DNA of 35,468 bases from a virus: UHGV virus genome UHGV-0114740, one strand, 5' to 3'. The notes under the pieces were generated by a model, which saw nothing but the letters and a program-made list of their open reading frames with translations, did no database searches and had not been told where the DNA came from. Positions 50-30,829 of the stretch are shown piece by piece; within the stretch, counting starts at the first letter, position 1, and each line of letters begins with the position of its first letter. The position numbers and the translations under genes are program-made.

Positions 50-190
50 TTACTGCTTACACTGTAAGAACGCCGCAAACTCCGCTCCCCAGAAGCTTAT
101 CCGTATTTCGCACAGCGAACCGTGCAGCATCCAGATGATGAGGATTGCCGTCACGCAGAACGTGATGGCCGTAAGCGATTTTTGCGACAT
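50..190 (-). CDS. Hok/Gef-family type I toxin-like small membrane protein (46 aa, MSQKSLTAITFCVTAILIIWMLHGSLCEIRISFWGAEFAAFLQCKQ)
   Basis: Own translation of the minus strand; below the ORF-track size cutoff. N-terminal hydrophobic helix then SLCEIR...AAFL.CK, recalling HokA/Hok. SD AGGAG 8 nt upstream of ATG (190..188); stop TAA at 52..50. Confidence 0.55.
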   Translation of the reverse strand: MSQKSLTAITFCVTAILIIWMLHGSLCEIRISFWGAEFAAFLQCKQ

Positions 191-22961: not shown

Positions 22962-24007
22962 TGAGCAGAAAAAATAAAAAATTGCGCATGAGTTCACGCA
23001 TTGATCTCGCTGATGCGCTCAGGAAAGAATCGTCGCTCAGTGCATTCACATTTGATGGTCCTTACCGCCTGACCGGGCATGACCTGCTGGACAATATGTA
23101 CTGTGCTGATAACGGTCGGTGGTATGAAACCCCGGTGGACTGGTACGGTCTGGCAAGAGCTGCCCGGCAAACGTCCTGGCATCAGTCTGCGCTTTACTTT
23201 AAGCGCAATGTATTACTCGGTTGCTACATCCCGCACCCGCTGCTTTCCCGGCAGGATTTCTCGGCGCTGGCGCTGGACTGGTTTGTGTTCGGTAACGCAT
23301 TCCTTGAGCTTCGGAGCAATATGCTCGGCGAACCGCTTAAATTACGGCACGCCCTGGCGAAATACATGCGACGCGGAAGCGATCTTGAATCATGGTGGTA
23401 TGTGCAGGATGGTAAGGACGCGTTTCAGTTTCGCCCTGGCAAAGTGTGCCACCTGATGAATCCTGACATTAACCAGGAAATCTACGGCATGCCGGAATAT
23501 CTCGGCGCATTACTCTCGGCCAGCCTGTCTCATTCGGCGGACATGTTCAGAAAACTGTATTACGACAACGGATCCCACGCCGGGTGCATCATCTACATCG
23601 GTGCAGCGCAGGTAAACCGCGAAAGCATGGACTCCCTGAAAGAAACGCTACAGGGTGCACGTGGTGGTGGTGCGTTTAAAAATGTGCTCATTCATGCGCC
23701 CAACGGGGGCAAAGAGGGAGTGCAAATTTTACCGTTCCAGCAGATCACCGCAAAGGATGAGTTCATGAATGTTAAGGCGGCATCCCGTGATGATGTGCTG
23801 GCTGCGCACCGCGTTCCGCCGCAACTGATGGGGGCGATGCCGGGCGAAAAAAGTGCGTTTGGCGATGTGGAGAAGGCTGCGCGGGTTTACGCAATTAACG
23901 AGCTGATGCCTGTCATGGAGGCCATGAAGCACATCAATGACTGGCTTGGCGAAGAGGTGATCCGCTTTAACCCTTACGCACTGTTAGACACCCAGCCCAC
24001 ATCCTGA
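22961..24007 (+). CDS. Q: Portal (capsid vertex) protein Q
   Basis: 348 aa directly after P with ATGA overlap; size and position as P2 gpQ. Confidence 0.85.
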   Translation: MSRKNKKLRMSSRIDLADALRKESSLSAFTFDGPYRLTGHDLLDNMYCADNGRWYETPVDWYGLARAARQTSWHQSALYFKRNVLLGCYIPHPLLSRQDFSALALDWFVFGNAFLELRSNMLGEPLKLRHALAKYMRRGSDLESWWYVQDGKDAFQFRPGKVCHLMNPDINQEIYGMPEYLGALLSASLSHSADMFRKLYYDNGSHAGCIIYIGAAQVNRESMDSLKETLQGARGGGAFKNVLIHAPNGGKEGVQILPFQQITAKDEFMNVKAASRDDVLAAHRVPPQLMGAMPGEKSAFGDVEKAARVYAINELMPVMEAMKHINDWLGEEVIRFNPYALLDTQPTS

Positions 24008-24034
24008 CGCGCTTCGCTTGTCTGCTGCTTCGCC

Positions 24035-24057
24035 GGGGCATAAAAAATTTATGCCCC
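24035..24057. other. Perfect 10-bp-stem hairpin GGGGCATAAA aaa TTTATGCCCC just 3' of Q
   Basis: Seen in sequence 28 nt after the Q stop; no flanking U-tract, so either a weak terminator or a protein-binding palindrome. Confidence 0.4.
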
Positions 24058-24333
24058 GACTCTCCAGCTCCTGTATCAATCAGATAATTTCACGATGCTT
24101 TTCTGCTGATTGCCATCATCGACAGTCAGACTCTTACGCAATCCCACCGCGTTGACTGCATGTTCTCGCCGTCTCAGTGCGATTTTGACGGCCTTACCTA
24201 AATCAAAAGCCCTCACGTCTTTTTCACGCTCAGCGTGAGAAATACAGCCATTCTGTTGTATCTCTGCGACATCGTTCAGGGAATGCTATTTACCCCCTGA
24301 AACGCGGGCTGTTCCCCCGTCACCTGCGCGCAG

Positions 24334-24472
24334 AAAAAACGCGTTTTTTTGTGCACGCACGGATCCTTGACGGATCCAGCCGCCACGGGGGCTGGAAGGG
24401 CAAAAAGTCGTTCAAAAAAATTGTGCAAATTTGTGCACTATTGTGCAGCAGGGCGATGCGCGATTATCGCCC
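24334..24472. repeat. Repeat cluster in the putative cos/packaging region: 16-bp perfect palindrome AAAAAACGCGTTTTTT, four TTGTGCA copies (three phased at 10 bp), palindrome GGGCGAT-n8-ATCGCCC
   Basis: Palindrome at 24334..24349; TTGTGCA at 24349, 24421, 24431, 24441; palindrome at 24451..24472. In P2, cos lies next to Q. The exact cos cleavage site was not identified. Confidence 0.4.
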
Positions 24473-24486
24473 TGGTTTGAGGGGGA

Positions 24487-25077
24487 TCAGGTGTTATTTT
24501 TATCTGTCGTCAGTGGGCTAAACCATCCACAATTTACATCGCAGGACTGATGCGTTCTGTCCTCGTGTTTCTCCTGCCACAATGCTTTTCCGCCAGCCTT
24601 TATGATGGCTCTTTCAACATCCCGCTCGTATCGCAAGGGCTGAAATACGTTATTAATGAAATATTCGCTTATGTCCGGAAGCAATACTGCAAAATTATTG
24701 GTTTGTTGCGCCGTTCGGCTATGCAGCAAAGCGGCGTACTTTAATGCGTCCTGTGCTTTCTGGAATTTAAGTGCATAGTCAGTGGCGATTTTTTCCAGTT
24801 CAGCGATTCGGTTGTCTTTAGTTTCCAGCCAATCAAGTAGCGCCAATACTTCAGGATCCCCGACATCCAACACTGTTACGCGTGATTTTTCATAATGTTC
24901 GTCGGCAAGAGTTCGACCAATTTTGAAATCTCCATCATCACCATAACCGGAGCAGGCATAAACAACCTGTGCTCCAGATATTCGCTGAATTGACATTTCC
25001 TCGCCGCAAATAGGGCATTTCGGTACTGGCACAGGTGAATAACGTTCGCGTAATGCCTGATAGTCAATCTTGCTCAC
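24487..25077 (-). CDS. Hypothetical protein (196 aa) in the tin/old-position cargo locus; possible Zn-ribbon
   Basis: GTG start with strong SD AAGGAGG; N-terminal CPICGEE...YACSGYG, acidic coiled-coil middle, C-terminal CDVNCGW. The N-terminus MSKIDYQALRE faintly recalls Ead/Ea22-like phage proteins; no confident family. Confidence 0.6.
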   Translation of the reverse strand: MSKIDYQALRERYSPVPVPKCPICGEEMSIQRISGAQVVYACSGYGDDGDFKIGRTLADEHYEKSRVTVLDVGDPEVLALLDWLETKDNRIAELEKIATDYALKFQKAQDALKYAALLHSRTAQQTNNFAVLLPDISEYFINNVFQPLRYERDVERAIIKAGGKALWQEKHEDRTHQSCDVNCGWFSPLTTDKNNT

Positions 25078-25109
25078 TGGTTGCCTCCTTTGTGTTGCGC
25101 CAGCTCTTC

Positions 25110-25598
25110 CTACGCCTGCATCATGCGATTGACCTGAACGCGTGTGCGTCGAACGGCAAAATTAAATTGAAACATGAGCCGGAACATTTCTGAGGCTTCC
25201 GTGTGAGCATCATGGAGAGGTGACAGGCGGTACAGTTCTGCCTCCGTAGCTTGTTGAATCAATGACAGATCAAATTGAAGTGCGGGTCTGGTACATTTTG
25301 CACATCTGGCAGCAAGCTCCGGCATCAGTTTCTTAACGAAGGTGTTTTGCACCGCTTTGTTGAGTTGTGTCTGCATCCAAATCGCAAATTTCAGCGAACG
25401 CATAAGTTTGATAGCCTCGGGCAGCGGCAGATAGATCATGCTGGTAGATTTGGGTGGTTGATGAATCATCTTCACGGATACGCGATTTCGCAGCGTTCGG
25501 AAAATCGTGTTCCCAACAACAGCCTCTACGGATACAGGACAGGGAGCCAGACCAGCCCGCAGTGCTTCTTTCATTAGCATGTATTCGTATTTTTTCAT
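25110..25598 (-). CDS. Hypothetical protein (162 aa) in the tin/old-position cargo locus
   Basis: ATG with SD GAGGA; no recognisable motif; co-oriented with and 32 bp upstream of the 196-aa gene. Confidence 0.6.
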   Translation of the reverse strand: MKKYEYMLMKEALRAGLAPCPVSVEAVVGNTIFRTLRNRVSVKMIHQPPKSTSMIYLPLPEAIKLMRSLKFAIWMQTQLNKAVQNTFVKKLMPELAARCAKCTRPALQFDLSLIQQATEAELYRLSPLHDAHTEASEMFRLMFQFNFAVRRTRVQVNRMMQA

Positions 25599-25658
25599 CG
25601 TGTTTTCCTCGTGCGGGGCGACAGTGCACCCCGATAAAATTAAAAGCCGTCAAATTCG

Positions 25659-25970
25659 TCATTCAGGAAATAATGCCCGGATATTCCCTGCCATCTGACT
25701 GGTTATCTGTGCGGTTGGTACTGGCTGTGACACGGGGCGTTCTGTCCTGGTTTGTGTCACCGATAACGCCTCATCGTCAGCCCATGCAGCCAGTCGGTAA
25801 GCCTCTGCCGGATTCATTTTCAGAAGTGCCAGCCCGGCCAAAAAAGCCACGCGTTGGCCGCTTTTGCGGGCTTCTGGTGTAAGGCTGTCCAGCCAGGCAC
25901 ATGCTTCGCCTTCGTTCTTGACGGCGGCGGGCTTCAGATAGAAACTTATCCGTCTGGTTGGTGTCGTCAT
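25659..25970 (-). CDS. parR: ParR/StbB-like partition adaptor protein
   Basis: Start at internal Met (MTTPTRRISFYLKPA...) with SD AAGGAG, 4 nt after the parM stop. RRISFYLKP...LDSLTP..ARKSGQRVAFLAGLALL parallels plasmid R1 ParR (RRTIAFKLNP...LDSIPQGERSRLNRAALTAGLALY). Confidence 0.7.
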   Translation of the reverse strand: MTTPTRRISFYLKPAAVKNEGEACAWLDSLTPEARKSGQRVAFLAGLALLKMNPAEAYRLAAWADDEALSVTQTRTERPVSQPVPTAQITSQMAGNIRALFPE

Positions 25971-25974
25971 TGGT

Positions 25975-26934
25975 TTACTCCTTGTCCATTGCGTACAGCC
26001 CATTAACCAGAGCAAACTGTGGCACCCCGTCCGCGATGAAAGTCGCATTAACTCCGCAGGCTTCGCGGATAGCGGGTGCCACAATCTCCGCCCCTCCACC
26101 GACAACCATCACCCGCCCGTAACCCGAAAAACCCGCCAGCGCGCGGATCACGCGTTGTTTCAGTGTTTCTTCCTTTTCACGAATAACCGCCATCAGGCTG
26201 TCGTAATGCGCGTCATTGTGGATGTGCTGGCGCAGCCAGGCTTCATCATGGCGATGTTCGATAATGGTATTGGCGATGTGGTGACTGGTACGCATACCGT
26301 TAGTGGCCATCACCGACAGTACGGCATCGGCCATCAGGGAAACGCCTACGTGTGGATCGCAAAACACCTGGCTGATACCTGCCAGTTGTCCCTGAACCTT
26401 TGCCACATCCAGCGTGGTTCCGCCTAAATCCACAATCAGCAGGGATTCAAACGGACTCATGTCAGCCAGTGCTTTAAAGCCAGCCGGAATGGATTCAGGC
26501 ATAACCCGTACGTTACGGATAGTGAATGCTTCGCCGTTCTGGTACTCCACCGGGCGCATGACGTTCGCTTTTTTGCGGTTGATGTTGGCCATGTCCGGCT
26601 GTGCGTTTGTGTCGAAATACTCGCTCAGTGGTAGGGTGACAACCACATCCACTTCCTGTGGTGTGATGCCTGATTTGACCAGTGCGTGATGAATGGCAAC
26701 GACATTCACATCGCTGTACTGGTACTGCGTGTCGGTCGTCTGGACAAAGCGATCGCTGACCGGATCAAAGCCATAGCGCACGCCATCAAGCATGTAGTTC
26801 GCGGGCTGCGTGCCACCGAACGGCGCAGACCATTCCGACTTGAAGCTGTTCGGGCTGATGGCGTTGCGGCGTTCGCCGTTCTCAGTCCATGCCAGCTTGA
26901 TGTTGGTGGAGCCGTCGTCGATACAAATTTTCAT
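25975..26934 (-). CDS. parM: ParM/StbA-like actin-family partition ATPase
   Basis: MKICIDDGSTNIKLAW, ISPNSFKSEW, YSDVNVVAIHHAL, VMPESIPAG, LLIVDLGGTTLD, VMVVGGGAE, LVNGLY all parallel plasmid R1 ParM blocks. Confidence 0.85.
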   Translation of the reverse strand: MKICIDDGSTNIKLAWTENGERRNAISPNSFKSEWSAPFGGTQPANYMLDGVRYGFDPVSDRFVQTTDTQYQYSDVNVVAIHHALVKSGITPQEVDVVVTLPLSEYFDTNAQPDMANINRKKANVMRPVEYQNGEAFTIRNVRVMPESIPAGFKALADMSPFESLLIVDLGGTTLDVAKVQGQLAGISQVFCDPHVGVSLMADAVLSVMATNGMRTSHHIANTIIEHRHDEAWLRQHIHNDAHYDSLMAVIREKEETLKQRVIRALAGFSGYGRVMVVGGGAEIVAPAIREACGVNATFIADGVPQFALVNGLYAMDKE

Positions 26935-26965
26935 GTCGCTTTTCCTTATGTTGATTAATTAATCG

Positions 26966-27074
26966 TTTACGGGATTCTGAAATCCCGCTTTTGCCTGTTT
27001 TGTGCGCACTTCATGTTTTATGGCGCGTTTTTTGCTCATTTACGGGATTTGTGAATCCCGTTTCTGTCTGTTTT
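26966..27074. repeat. Two ~36-bp direct repeats, each with a 7-bp-stem palindrome (CGGGATT n4 AATCCCG), upstream of parM and abutting the A stop codon; parC-like centromere or operator candidate
   Basis: R1 26966..27001 TTTACGGGATTCTGAAATCCCGCTTTTGCCTGTTTT; R2 27039..27074 TTTACGGGATTTGTGAATCCCGTTTCTGTCTGTTTT; 73 bp apart. Confidence 0.5.
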
Positions 27075-29832
27075 TGTTTCCACTGGTCAGTCCACCCCGC
27101 AGCAGGTCTGCTTTGCGGCGGGCGCGTTCAGTGGTTTCACTGATTCTCTGTTCGTGCTCTGCGTCGCGGATGGCGCGCAGCATGTCAGAAAGCACGGTAA
27201 CGGGTGTTTTCATGGTGTTCTGGTCCTGCTGAAGTGTGAATGCCAGGCGTGCGGCGGCTTCGGGGTCTGATGCCCCCAGCTGTTCCAGGTAGCTGACGAC
27301 CGGGTTATGGCGGATCTCCGTGCTGCTTACGCCGTGGTTACGGCTCAGGCGCTGCCAGAGCTGCGTGATTCGGCTGTCCGGGCGGGTATCCGGTTTGCGT
27401 ACAATTTCAAATCCCTGCGGTGCAATGATGCTGCCGTCAACGTACAGACTGCCGCCCCGTAACAGGTGCTGCATCTGCTGTTCACCAATATGCAGGCCGA
27501 GAGATTCAGCAGACTCCCGCCATTCTTTAGCGAGTAACTCGTGGTTATCAGGCAAAGGCTGTGGCTGTTTGCGGCTCTGTGTCCAGTTCTGCATTTCATC
27601 GCTGCTGTTTTTTGCCTGTTTGTCACGAAGCGAACACATCAGCGCCCGGCGTTCGTGCCGTTTCAGTGAATGCATCCATTCGTTCACTTCAACGCCGTCA
27701 GGGAGCTGCGGCCACGGTGCTGGCCGTTCTTCCGGCTGTTCTGTCCCGTTGTTGTCTGTTTCCTGTACACGGGGACAGTTATTGCCACGAGTCCAAGGGG
27801 CGGCAGGGCCGCCCTGAAGGTCAAAACCATTTTCGCTGGCGCTGTCTTTCGCTTCCGGTTTGCGTCTTACCAGCTTCCAGTTATCCGGATGCGTGCACAC
27901 ACGGGAGGATTCCCCGATGAGTGGTGACCAGATCCCGTAAATCTGTACGCTCTGTTCGCCGTAATCGTTCAGCTCATCGGCGAGGTCGTAGGCGGTGCGA
28001 ATCAGGTAGTCTTTGCGTGGAACAAGTACGCCGCCCTGTTTCTCTATGTAGGTGGCAAAACATCCGGCATCAGCGGCGGCAAGAACCGCATCCATTGCGT
28101 CATCCTTCAGCCGTTGCGGGCCTTCCGGGTTGCGTGCCATCTGGCTGGCAAGGCGGCGCAGTTCACGCCATACCTGGCGGGAGGGGATGCCAAAGAACTG
28201 GAACTGGCGGACCCGGTGAAGGCGCGCCCAGCCGATGGCGCGTTCCACGCTCTCGGCCATTGATTTTCCGGTTTCGTGGTCAACGCGTGGTTTGCCCGTT
28301 TTCGGGTCGATGCCATCCACGGCGCGGCTGTCCAGGTTTTTTCCGATGTAGGTCGCGATATAGCTGGTTGGTGTGCCTTTTGAGCCGTCTACGTACTCCG
28401 CCTTAAAGCGCGGAGTAATATCATCGCCCAGCTCGTGACGATCTTCCTGAATGGCAATATCGCGGGCGTGGGACACAATGGTGTCGATTTCTTCCGGATG
28501 GGCAAAGACCATCATATGCCAGTGCACGGTGCCGTCATGGTGAGGCTCCACCGTGCGGATGCCATACCAGCGCAGGCCGTCGCGGTTCAGTTTCTTGCGG
28601 ACCGCCGCAAAAAACGTGTTAACCAGGTAATCGCTGGAGTCGCGCATGGTGGCCCCGTTCCATTTGGGATTCGGATGACCGTTCTCTGTTGTGGCGTGGT
28701 ATTTTGACGGGCAGGTGACAGTCAGAAACACCGCTTTGTCGCCACGGGCTTCGGCCAGAAGTTCCAGCCCCTTCATGGTGGCCATCATTTCTGCCTTACG
28801 GTGAACCGGGTTACTTACTCCCGCGTAATACACTGTCTCGAGATCAATCGTGAACCCATCTTCGTTTTCCAGCATGAAACTTTTCAGGAAATCGCGTGTT
28901 TTCTCGCGCTGTGCGCGAAACTCGCTTAACGCGTCCTGGCTCAGATAGGGCGATGTCTTTCTGGAAACCAGACAGGCGGCGCGGAGTTGTTCTTCTCTCC
29001 ACTCGCAACGTAACAGCCACAGTTTGCGTTTCCACCATTCCGCACAGGTCAGGCGTAGGATTGCGCCCGGCAGCAGTTCCGTGTCCGGTTCGTTCCTCCG
29101 GTCTTTGTCTGTTGTCAGTGCGTCATAATGTGGAGGCATGGCGTGCAGGTGTAACGCCATGCGGGCCAGCATCTGATACGCCTTCAGGGTTACATCCATG
29201 GTCAGCTCGCCATCGGTCGCGCCAAAGCCATTGCAGAGTTTTTCGAAGGTGCTGCTGAACATCGCCGCCGTCATGGTGGCCAGCGTCTGTATCTGGTGCT
29301 TGTTGAGCTGCGGCAGGTAAAGCAAATCGTCCAGGCGTTCGCGTCCGGCAAGGGCGCGATAACCCCGTGTCAGCCAGCGGTGGTCGGTGCGGTCCAGACG
29401 TTCGAATATTTTGCGCAGGGTTCCGCGCGCGTAGCGTTCAGCCTGCCAGCTCTTTTTGCCTTTCTGGCGATCGGCTTCCTGTTTTTTGCGCAGGAAGGAG
29501 AGGTGGCGAATAAGCGGATCGCGCAGATAGGACGGCAGCAGGCGCAGCGAGGCCATGGCTTCATCCACCGCGCCGCGTGCCTGTTTTCTGGCGTCTCCTG
29601 CCAGTGTGATGGTTTTGTCCTGTTTTTCCTGTGCGTCCAGGCTTTTATTAATCAGGTTGCCCAGCGGCGTGGCGGAGAACGCCGCATCAGCCATTTCCTG
29701 GCGGCGCTCGTTCTCTGCCCGGTAAGCATCCAGCCAGGAGGAAAGCGCGGATTCAGGAGCGGGGATCCCCGTTCCTTCACGCCCCACTGCGTGGCGCGGT
29801 TGTTGCCAGTCCCTGATGTACTCTGCCGTCAT
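27040..29832 (-). CDS. A: Replication initiation protein A (rolling-circle HUH endonuclease)
   Basis: 930 aa; contains HWHMMVF (HUH-like) and SYIATYIGK (paired catalytic Tyr) as in P2 gpA; appears longer than I remember P2 A to be. Confidence 0.85.
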   Translation of the reverse strand: MTAEYIRDWQQPRHAVGREGTGIPAPESALSSWLDAYRAENERRQEMADAAFSATPLGNLINKSLDAQEKQDKTITLAGDARKQARGAVDEAMASLRLLPSYLRDPLIRHLSFLRKKQEADRQKGKKSWQAERYARGTLRKIFERLDRTDHRWLTRGYRALAGRERLDDLLYLPQLNKHQIQTLATMTAAMFSSTFEKLCNGFGATDGELTMDVTLKAYQMLARMALHLHAMPPHYDALTTDKDRRNEPDTELLPGAILRLTCAEWWKRKLWLLRCEWREEQLRAACLVSRKTSPYLSQDALSEFRAQREKTRDFLKSFMLENEDGFTIDLETVYYAGVSNPVHRKAEMMATMKGLELLAEARGDKAVFLTVTCPSKYHATTENGHPNPKWNGATMRDSSDYLVNTFFAAVRKKLNRDGLRWYGIRTVEPHHDGTVHWHMMVFAHPEEIDTIVSHARDIAIQEDRHELGDDITPRFKAEYVDGSKGTPTSYIATYIGKNLDSRAVDGIDPKTGKPRVDHETGKSMAESVERAIGWARLHRVRQFQFFGIPSRQVWRELRRLASQMARNPEGPQRLKDDAMDAVLAAADAGCFATYIEKQGGVLVPRKDYLIRTAYDLADELNDYGEQSVQIYGIWSPLIGESSRVCTHPDNWKLVRRKPEAKDSASENGFDLQGGPAAPWTRGNNCPRVQETDNNGTEQPEERPAPWPQLPDGVEVNEWMHSLKRHERRALMCSLRDKQAKNSSDEMQNWTQSRKQPQPLPDNHELLAKEWRESAESLGLHIGEQQMQHLLRGGSLYVDGSIIAPQGFEIVRKPDTRPDSRITQLWQRLSRNHGVSSTEIRHNPVVSYLEQLGASDPEAAARLAFTLQQDQNTMKTPVTVLSDMLRAIRDAEHEQRISETTERARRKADLLRGGLTSGNKNRQKRDSQIP

Positions 29833-29838
29833 AGTGAT

Positions 29839-30204
29839 TTACTTCGTCATGCCATTCAGGGTGTCGCGGCAGACTGTAGCCAGCCGCTGAATTTCCAGCA
29901 CGGTGTCTTCTGTGTCGGCATGGCGATGTGTGATGCGGATGCTGTCGGCAATCACATCGACGATTGCAGAGGATGGGCGCTGGTAAATGCCAATAACGGA
30001 CGGGGTGCCACCTTCAATGCGGTAAAGCCTGTAATTTCCCTCGTGGCTGTCAATCATGTAGCGACCATCAATAACAATCTTTCCGTCAGCGAGCTGCGGT
30101 ACAGGCAGGGATTTCTGGTACATGTCATAACGATCACGCACGCGAGCGGCAAGATCACGTTCTGTGTTGAGCAGGTATTCAAGAAAGTCGTTGGCGAGAA
30201 TCAT
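29839..30204 (-). CDS. Hypothetical early protein (121 aa)
   Basis: ORF immediately upstream of A in the same operon; no recognisable motif. Confidence 0.5.
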   Translation of the reverse strand: MILANDFLEYLLNTERDLAARVRDRYDMYQKSLPVPQLADGKIVIDGRYMIDSHEGNYRLYRIEGGTPSVIGIYQRPSSAIVDVIADSIRITHRHADTEDTVLEIQRLATVCRDTLNGMTK

Positions 30205-30276
30205 TGCGGCAATCCTCTTGTTACAGATGTGCGAAGGCCTCCCGCCGCAAGGTGCAGGAAAGGCCCGGAACAGGAA

Positions 30277-30507
30277 TTAATGGAGTTTGTTTTGCTGCTG
30301 GATGAGCTGTTGAAGCTCGTGCAGATCATCCGCCAGATAGCTGAAAACAGAGGCGGAATAAATGTTTGATAGTGCGTGACTGCGCTCATGCAGCATATTG
30401 ATGTGCATGATTTGCGCGACGCGTGATGCGCGGGAAAGTCTGCGGTTGATTTCAGTCTGGATGTGACGACGCTCCGCGATAGCGCGGTGCTGTTTGCGGT
30501 CTGCCAT
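30277..30507 (-). CDS. Hypothetical small basic protein (76 aa)
   Basis: ATG with SD AAGAGG; basic helical composition; overlaps a longer low-complexity track ORF that I reject. Confidence 0.45.
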   Translation of the reverse strand: MADRKQHRAIAERRHIQTEINRRLSRASRVAQIMHINMLHERSHALSNIYSASVFSYLADDLHELQQLIQQQNKLH

Positions 30508-30829
30508 GGTGTGGCCTCTTTGCTCGGTGATAGAAATAACTCACCATCCAGAGTTGAGAATCTCGGGGTGGCGAGACGTACAGGGTTCTCAACACCGGAG
30601 AGCAAAGAATCCGGCCCGACCGAAGTCGGCCCCGTACGCCCCGCCATAATTCTGACGCGAAAAAGACGTGGCAATACAGTACGCACAAAAAAACCGCTTG
30701 CGCGGTTATGCGCTTTGCTCTGTATCGGGTTGAGAATCCCGGCACCCGTTTTATGAGGTGCAGCGGAAATGTAACCTGACCGATTGAGGCATGGCAAGCG
30801 GTTTTTTTGTGTGTGCATGTTCTGGTTTC

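Follow-up and report, generated by a model that had tools for sequence, protein, structure and literature searches.

Why should a temperate phage that integrates into the bacterial chromosome carry a plasmid-type DNA segregation cassette? The question is raised by two adjacent genes, parM and parR, in the virus genome UHGV-0114740, a 35,468-nucleotide stretch of DNA that was analyzed in full and is referred to here as the window. A first-pass annotation, made from the sequence alone, had treated an active segregation module in such an integrative P2-like element as unexpected. The cassette (parMR) proved to be a core module of the P88-like phage lineage, and its presence there is not novel: it is common, annotated, and already noted in print, and there are precedents in the SrpMRC and AlpAC systems. 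RefSeq labels the two products "plasmid segregation protein ParM" and "plasmid partitioning/stability family protein", and PHROGs holds families for both. Approximately one-quarter of P2-like phages were reported to carry a putative partition system, with the suggestion that they are maintained as plasmids (Rousset et al. 2022), and the paper describing phage PhiSM gives the gene as a "fitness" factor. The role of parMR in P88-like phages is therefore a real but modest question, to which we add the depth of its conservation, the selection acting on it, the layout of its cis region, the shape of ParR, and a hok gene that may be its companion. The best explanation is that parMR is a type II (ParMRC-like) segregation module of the phage and not part of a plasmid lifestyle.

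Identity of the ParM and ParR proteins

The parM gene (25975..26934, minus strand) has an ATG start and encodes an intact actin-like segregation ATPase of 319 aa. Both of its Pfam domains are matched end to end, StbA_N (1.5e-82, 275.7 bits) and the C-terminal PF21523 (9.9e-69, 230.9 bits), and in a PDB sequence search residues 2-316 matched the R1 ParM crystal and cryo-EM chains (E=9.5e-93), in agreement with the first-pass identification of the product as an R1-like ParM. It also falls into PHROG 691, "partition protein" (2.9e-90); the ParM and PRTRC matches in an NCBIfam search were all below threshold and uninformative. Identity to the IncF/R1-type ParM is approximately 47%. The nucleotide-binding motifs of the actin fold are intact: DDGSTNIK (phosphate 1), PESIPAG (catalytic Glu), DLGGTTLD (phosphate 2), and GGGAE (adenosine).

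The parR gene (25659..25970, minus strand) encodes a ribbon-helix-helix-type adaptor of the StbB family, 103 aa long, which matches PF10784 Plasmid_stab_B, the family of R1 StbB/ParR (1.6e-24, 85.9 bits), and PHROG 2515 (1.3e-58); a PDB sequence search with ParR matched no solved structure. Its N-terminal DNA-binding domain is 34% identical to that of the R1-type ParR, and the N-terminal strand RRISFYLKP is common to plasmid and phage ParRs. In the alignment, a C-terminal N-x-x-x-L-F(P) tail is shared with plasmid ParRs, including the R1-type KKNAMKLIN, and this conserved tail is probably the part that contacts ParM in plasmid systems. The TAA stop of parM (25977-25975) is followed by four nucleotides (ACCA) and then by the ATG of parR at 25970, exactly the gap given for the ParR-like adaptor in the first-pass annotation, and the Shine-Dalgarno sequence of parR, AAGGAG, lies inside the 3' end of parM. 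Judging from the family matches, motifs, and gene junction, parM and parR are true members of the ParM and ParR families, intact and translationally coupled.

Plasmid R1 ParMRC (StbA/StbB/parC) and its IncF and IncI relatives have the same two families, the same gene order, and the same translational coupling. Along the full length, their ParMs share approximately 47-53% identity and the ATPase motifs with the phage protein, and a repeat-bearing region lies upstream of parM in both. Unlike R1 ParMRC, which serves a low-copy extrachromosomal replicon, the phage cassette resides in an integrating phage that lacks a plasmid replicon. Variation in ParR was encountered among close relatives: in E. 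albertii, a near-identical ParM occurs with another ParR allele, distinguished by its linker, and the ParR of E. coli O157:H7 EDL933, annotated at the same length (104 aa), appears to differ from that of the window over the same stretch.

The cassette is a fixed component of P88-like phages

At the DNA level, the window shares 95-97% identity with Escherichia phage P88 and with further genomes of Xuanwuvirus (Peduoviridae). It encodes a tyrosine integrase (Int_N and Phage_integrase domains), a C-type helix-turn-helix (HTH) repressor, and Cox, all intact, as the first-pass annotation had recognized for int, C, and cox. There are no host flanks within the window, and its own integrated state is deduced from near-identical chromosomal copies. 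Directly upstream of parM and co-oriented with it lies gene A (27040..29832, minus strand), which encodes a P2-type rolling-circle replication endonuclease (PF05840 Phage_GPA, 8.9e-131), the only replication protein of the element. The gene A product is 930 aa in the window, 940 aa in P88, 907 aa in a Serratia relative, and 785-835 aa in relatives from Plesiomonas, Hafnia, and Enterobacter, and in the window the Phage_GPA domain covers only residues 179-503, with no family assigned to the long C-terminal part. Replication of the P2 gene A type yields monomeric circles, which also serve as the packaging substrate, and gene A is presumed to be the source of circular genome copies for parMR. Neither the annotation of P88 nor the early-region open reading frames (ORFs) of the window revealed a plasmid-type replication initiator. 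On the other side of the cassette, the large terminase and portal genes, named after the P88 annotation, lie beyond a short cargo region and a cos-proximal gap.

Of 5426 complete E. coli genomes, 1307 contain the parMR segment, at 1453 chromosomal versus 2 plasmid places and in up to three copies per genome; the carriers, approximately a quarter of the total, include enteropathogenic E. coli E2348/69 and O157:H7, ST131, and O104:H4 strains. At a coverage of at least 80%, P88-type gene A occurs in 1321 E. coli genomes, as against 1278 for parMR. This nearly 1:1 linkage indicates that the cassette is a fixed part of the P88-like lineage rather than occasional cargo. For annotation, "Plasmid segregation protein ParM" in a chromosome or a phage-sized contig should not be taken as a sign of a plasmid. 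A 226-kb contig labeled Vagococcus sp. (NZ_JBQPOM010000071.1) contains an E. coli-type phage region with a parM 97.8% identical at the DNA level to that of the window; it is most likely contamination or a mislabeled assembly.

Conservation and selection across phage lineages

A ParM scan of genome contigs gave only near-identical loci, and divergent relatives were obtained from the protein database and from look-ups of their contigs. The same geneA-parM-parR-cargo-portal order recurs in P2-like prophages from four other genera: Plesiomonas (where int, C, and cox are also present), Hafnia, Serratia, and Enterobacter (E. ludwigii). Between those phage lineages ParM is 54-63% identical, as against 29-48% for portal, 39-47% for large terminase, and 32-57% for GPA. 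ParM homologs of 53% identity or less come from plasmid or integrative and conjugative element (ICE) contexts, with the nearest plasmid ParM at approximately 53%. In a neighbor-joining tree with midpoint rooting and without bootstrap, the phage-context ParMs group apart from the plasmid ParMs and R1. The motifs DDGSTxIK, PESxPAG, DLGGTTLD, and GGGA align with those of the R1-type ParM and are kept in all five phage lineages. Among P88-like sequences, the ratio of nonsynonymous to synonymous substitution rates (dN/dS) is 0.04-0.18 for parM, 0.06-0.46 for parR, and 0.12-0.15 for gene A; parMR is under strong purifying selection.

Paired palindromic sites upstream of parM

The interval from the end of gene A to parM (26935..27078, minus strand) is a candidate centromere/operator (parC-like) region. 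It contains two 39-nt direct repeats (26963-27001 and 27036-27074), 73 bp apart, so the repeats that the first-pass annotation mentioned upstream of parM do exist. Each repeat holds the palindrome CGGGATT-N4-AATCCCG, which a pattern search found twice in the window and never in 100 shuffles. The proximal palindrome, CGGGATTTCAGAATCCCG(TAA) (26967..26987, minus strand), lies approximately 30 nt upstream of the parM start. The last three bases of the distal palindrome, CGGGATTCACAAATCCCG(TAA) (27040..27060, minus strand), are the gene A stop codon, and the last codons of gene A thus overlap it. An AT-rich box, CGATTAATTAATCAAC (26950..26965, minus strand), is located just 5' of the parM Shine-Dalgarno sequence; it is invariant in eight P88-like sequences and could be a -10 region. 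The sequence ATTAATCAA is found in Plesiomonas and Hafnia phages too. Among P88-like phages, neither the repeat arms nor the proximal AT box shows any change, whereas the spacer varies. CAnAAA(N)Y motifs number six within 130 bp of the region versus at most two elsewhere in the window, a contrast that is only suggestive because the motif was picked after the region had been viewed.

Conserved paired sites are present upstream of parM in each phage lineage examined. In the Plesiomonas and Hafnia phages they are YGGG-N10-CCCR sites, 72 bp apart in Plesiomonas and approximately 72-84 bp apart in Hafnia, and in the Serratia and Enterobacter phages there is one pair of inverted 21-bp sites. The arrangement suggests that ParR binds the repeat region upstream of parM. 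Comparison of ParR alleles with the repeats of P88-like phages gave no covariation indicative of specificity switching: the variation of ParR sits in the linker, and its DNA-binding residues are uniform, like the palindromes.

There is no predicted sense-strand terminator between gene A and parM, and the upstream palindromes are terminator-like on the antisense strand only. A weak candidate promoter read by eye, TTCAGA-N16-ATTAAT, overlaps the proximal palindrome. Since parMR directly follows gene A in the same orientation, with no intervening sense terminator and no consensus promoter, it is probably expressed with the early replication genes. Two other readings of the region were dropped. 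An RNA structure (fold z=-3.6) is explained by pairing of both palindromes, and it was discarded because the changes in the arms among relatives are not compensatory; the P2 late-promoter dyad TGT-N12-ACA gave 8 matches versus 8.5 expected, none of them near parM.

Segregation of transient phage circles as the favored function

We tentatively favor, at somewhat less than an even chance, the explanation that, after infection or excision, parMR distributes the transient phage circle to both daughter cells. The two proteins have the parts required for an R1 ParMRC-like action. ParR dimers would bind the repeat/palindrome region just upstream of parM, where bound ParR would repress the local promoter and form a DNA-bound cap for ParM-ATP filaments, and filaments growing between two phage circles would push them apart. 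The substrate would be the extrachromosomal monomeric phage circle made by gene A, available after infection but before integration, and again after excision. The pay-off would be that both daughters receive copies, so that lysogeny is established or kept in more of the descendants and the element is lost from fewer cells. The hok gene (53..190, minus strand), a Hok/Gef-family toxin ORF (PF01848, 8.4e-08, 32.1 bits versus a cutoff of 22), might act as a back-up to parMR. It lies at the ogr/attachment end of the prophage and is annotated in P88 and in the circular record NZ_CP148288.1 too; no Sok-type RNA scored above the Rfam threshold. It is a second plasmid-type stability determinant, outside the cassette, and a possible companion of parMR. 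The attP-joined 34.5-kb circle of such a phage in one assembly supports circle segregation. The first-pass annotation had offered three roles, and the stabilization of an excised or unintegrated circle is the best hypothesis among them; the plasmid-like carrier state and the link with the two downstream genes fall away.

Circle segregation with a hok back-up parallels the combination of SrpMRC with a toxin-antitoxin system in the SXT/R391 integrative elements. SrpMRC is likewise a type II actin-like locus, strictly conserved in integrating elements and located beside a rolling-circle-type replication function, as parMR is beside gene A, and it is accompanied by a toxin-antitoxin stabilizer (PMC4489591). 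In R391, which carries srpMRC and hipAB, deletion and plasmid-stability assays demonstrated active partition: srpMRC reduces the loss of excised R391 and confers stability on a single-copy test plasmid that is deficient in partition (Carraro et al. 2015, PMC4489591). The phage cassette fits this class, being conserved with gene A in approximately 1300 E. coli genomes and in four other genera, with integrase present. The two systems differ in that the P88-type ParM is a close family member of R1 ParM and SrpM only a distant relative, and in that the host of SrpMRC is an ICE and that of parMR a tailed phage. If circle segregation is correct, active partition, known in ICEs, extends to integrating tailed phages, there is a mechanistic basis for how P2-like phages secure lysogeny, and the boundary between integrative phages and phage-plasmids blurs further.

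Several observations weigh against this explanation. The P88-type ParR lacks a middle helix (LLAELL..T....I...I.SV.P) that is found in all other aligned phage and plasmid ParRs, and formation of the ParR scaffold may consequently be impaired or different. The cis region is also reduced. Four plasmid homologs, including the R1-type IncF system, have two clusters of 11-bp-phased iterons flanking a clear promoter; no such iteron array, typical of all plasmid homologs examined, was found upstream of the phage parM, where there are instead the two palindromic 39-nt repeats and the loose CAnAAAY motifs, and a sigma-70 consensus scan of positions 24000-27400 found no promoter. Truncated ParM clusters of 229 aa (649 members) and 188 aa (555 members) occur inside long contigs. 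parM has thus been inactivated in some widely sampled lineages, and the frequency of such alleles in some genome sets indicates that its loss is tolerated once the phage has integrated, which speaks against an essential role in the integrated state. A partition system is useless to a non-replicating single copy, and inheritance is irrelevant in a cell committed to lysis. Literature searches found no functional or expression data on P88-like parMR.

A broader evolutionary account, in which we have slightly less confidence than in circle segregation itself, accommodates the reduced site: a ParMR clade long inherited in the P2-like phages of Enterobacterales, with a pared-down centromere of two palindromic sites and a shortened ParR, may now work as a viral DNA-handling machine that efficient lysogenization or productive replication requires. 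If so, an actin-like cytoskeletal function would be shown for the first time in a temperate, integrating phage of a Gram-negative host, and this would explain why a "plasmid" gene is constrained more than portal and terminase in an integrating phage.

Alternative roles of the cassette

The strongest competitor, possible but clearly less likely than segregation of phage circles, is that parMR positions DNA during the lytic cycle, with ParR tethering replicating circles to ParM filaments and thereby raising the efficiency of replication or packaging, as in the AlpAC system. The position of parMR immediately 3' of the early gene A, co-oriented and without a sense terminator, makes coexpression with the replication genes likely, and the monomeric circles of P2-type replication are what is packaged. 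The depth of conservation and the purifying selection seen in working, inducible phages (P88 and PhiSM, for example) are in line with this role as well. AlpAC/alpS of the Corynebacterium glutamicum prophage CGP3 also pairs an actin-like ATPase with an adaptor whose binding site lies upstream of its own operon (PMC4446434). It links circular CGP3 phage DNA to filaments, AlpAC is induced early, AlpA binds upstream of the operon, and both proteins are needed for efficient CGP3 replication, a role that was shown experimentally (Donovan et al. 2015, PMC4446434). AlpAC differs from parMR in belonging to another actin-like family, in its opposite gene order, and in its Gram-positive host. Most P2-like phages, P2 included, manage without parMR, which is carried by only about one in four (Rousset et al.), and this counts against a lytic role. 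A further difficulty is a defective P2-like remnant in the chromosome of E. coli O157:H7 EDL933 (4761566-4780725), in which int, early genes, gene A, parM, and parR are intact, an IS3-family element comes right after parR, and no capsid, portal, or terminase is annotated in the stretch examined. Retention of an intact parMR in this capsid-less remnant does not agree with a purely lytic role, nor with simple decay.

We consider it unlikely that the cassette supports long-term, low-copy persistence of the phage as a plasmid, although that suggestion has been published (Rousset et al.). Temperate phages with plasmid-type partition genes are known: the plasmid prophages P1 (ParAB), D6 (StbA-type, with a ParM 48% identical to that of the window), and Burkholderia KS14 (RepB and ParA). 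KS14 is itself P2-like and demonstrates that a plasmid lifestyle is compatible with a P2-like virion module, and the presence of hok in the same element points in the same direction. P1, D6, and KS14 have plasmid replicons and occur as plasmids, whereas the P88-like lineage has an integrase and sits in chromosomes. KS14 has RepB and ParA, whereas no plasmid-type initiator was found in the P88-like lineage, where integrase, C, and Cox are intact. The first-pass annotation had raised the existence of close relatives as extrachromosomal phage-plasmids, and a single phage-sized circular record does exist, yet it is just one among 72,556 plasmid records in PLSDB, six of which contain a P88-type ParM. 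This record, the 34,461-bp circular "plasmid" NZ_CP148288.1 of E. coli Z1323PEC0009, is a whole P88-like phage closed at attP, with int joined to the hok/ogr end as in an excised circle and with an extra methyltransferase/Com pair beside hok. Its gpD is split into three ORFs, which suggests assembly errors, and the record may be a low-quality assembly of induced phage. The remaining PLSDB records with a P88-type ParM are very large; those of 0.4-1.4 Mb are probably not genuine plasmids, and a Shigella boydii "plasmid" record found by DNA search is a linear, IS1-disrupted fragment. Together with the absence of a plasmid replicon and the presence of integrase, the 1453 chromosomal versus 2 plasmid places argue against routine plasmid carriage, and hence against a plasmid-like carrier state as the regular lifestyle.

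More doubtful again is a role expressed in the lysogen and unrelated to segregation of the phage itself, which could take the form of incompatibility with or exclusion of incoming elements that share the centromere, action on the chromosomal locus, or use of ParR mainly as a transcription factor. parMR borders the geneA-portal hotspot, which houses exclusion genes expressed in the lysogen, the reduced two-palindrome site looks operator-like rather than centromere-like, the cassette is intact in the defective O157:H7 remnant, and a genome may hold up to three copies. The presence of parMR follows the type of gene A at nearly 1:1, unlike cargo, and no PADLOC defense model was matched. Purifying selection acts on the ParM ATPase and on the ParR tail, although a pure repressor would not need it, and the uniformity of the ParR DNA-binding residues and of the palindromes gives no sign of diversification in specificity. 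It is very improbable that parMR is a functionless relic captured once from a plasmid and carried passively, for although truncated parM alleles are frequent in some clusters and both the parC-like region and ParR are reduced, dN/dS lies far below 1, lineages with core genes at no more than 30-50% identity still carry full-length ORFs in which the motifs are intact, and a nearest plasmid ParM of only approximately 53% identity means that the capture was not recent.

Genes downstream of parR and other features

The first-pass annotation had suggested that the cassette was repurposed together with the two genes downstream of parR, and this link is not supported: in otherwise near-identical phages, the genes at this position differ. 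The position after parR is occupied in such phages by an Ea22-like gene, a ClpX-type zinc finger, a YafO toxin, DUF4760, DUF3800, or SSB, and in distant relatives by HicAB or a KAP NTPase; the arrangement of the window itself is common to only 146 genomes. The geneA-portal interval is a cargo hotspot of P2-like phages (Rousset et al. 2022). parMR is constant and the genes after parR are variable, so the cassette is unlike the defense cargo of this hotspot, and the two downstream genes belong to the variable cargo of the hotspot and are no partners of parMR.

The gene right after parR (25110-25598, minus strand) is a 162-aa ORF with no match in Pfam, NCBIfam, PHROGs, or PADLOC; it is a candidate defense or exclusion gene because it sits in the geneA-portal hotspot, the usual home of anti-phage genes. 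The second (24487-25077, minus strand) encodes an Ead/Ea22-like protein (PF13935, 7.9e-32) whose N-terminal part gives a weak zinc-ribbon signal. A PADLOC scan of ParM, ParR, and both downstream gene products gave no matches and hence no support for a defense system. Over a 230-bp piece, the Ea22-like gene shares approximately 83% identity with genes of ~110-kb plasmids and of Stx and P22-like phages, an indication that the piece is a mosaic segment in wide circulation.

An Rfam search found two RNAs in the early region of the window, a C4 antisense RNA (RF01695, 78.5 bits; 30564-30651, minus strand) and, beside it, isrK (RF01394, 63.1 bits; 30687-30761, minus strand). Judged by the gene order of P88, they lie near the "derepression protein" gene. 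A 205-aa ORF at 30201-30818 that overlaps both RNAs is probably spurious.

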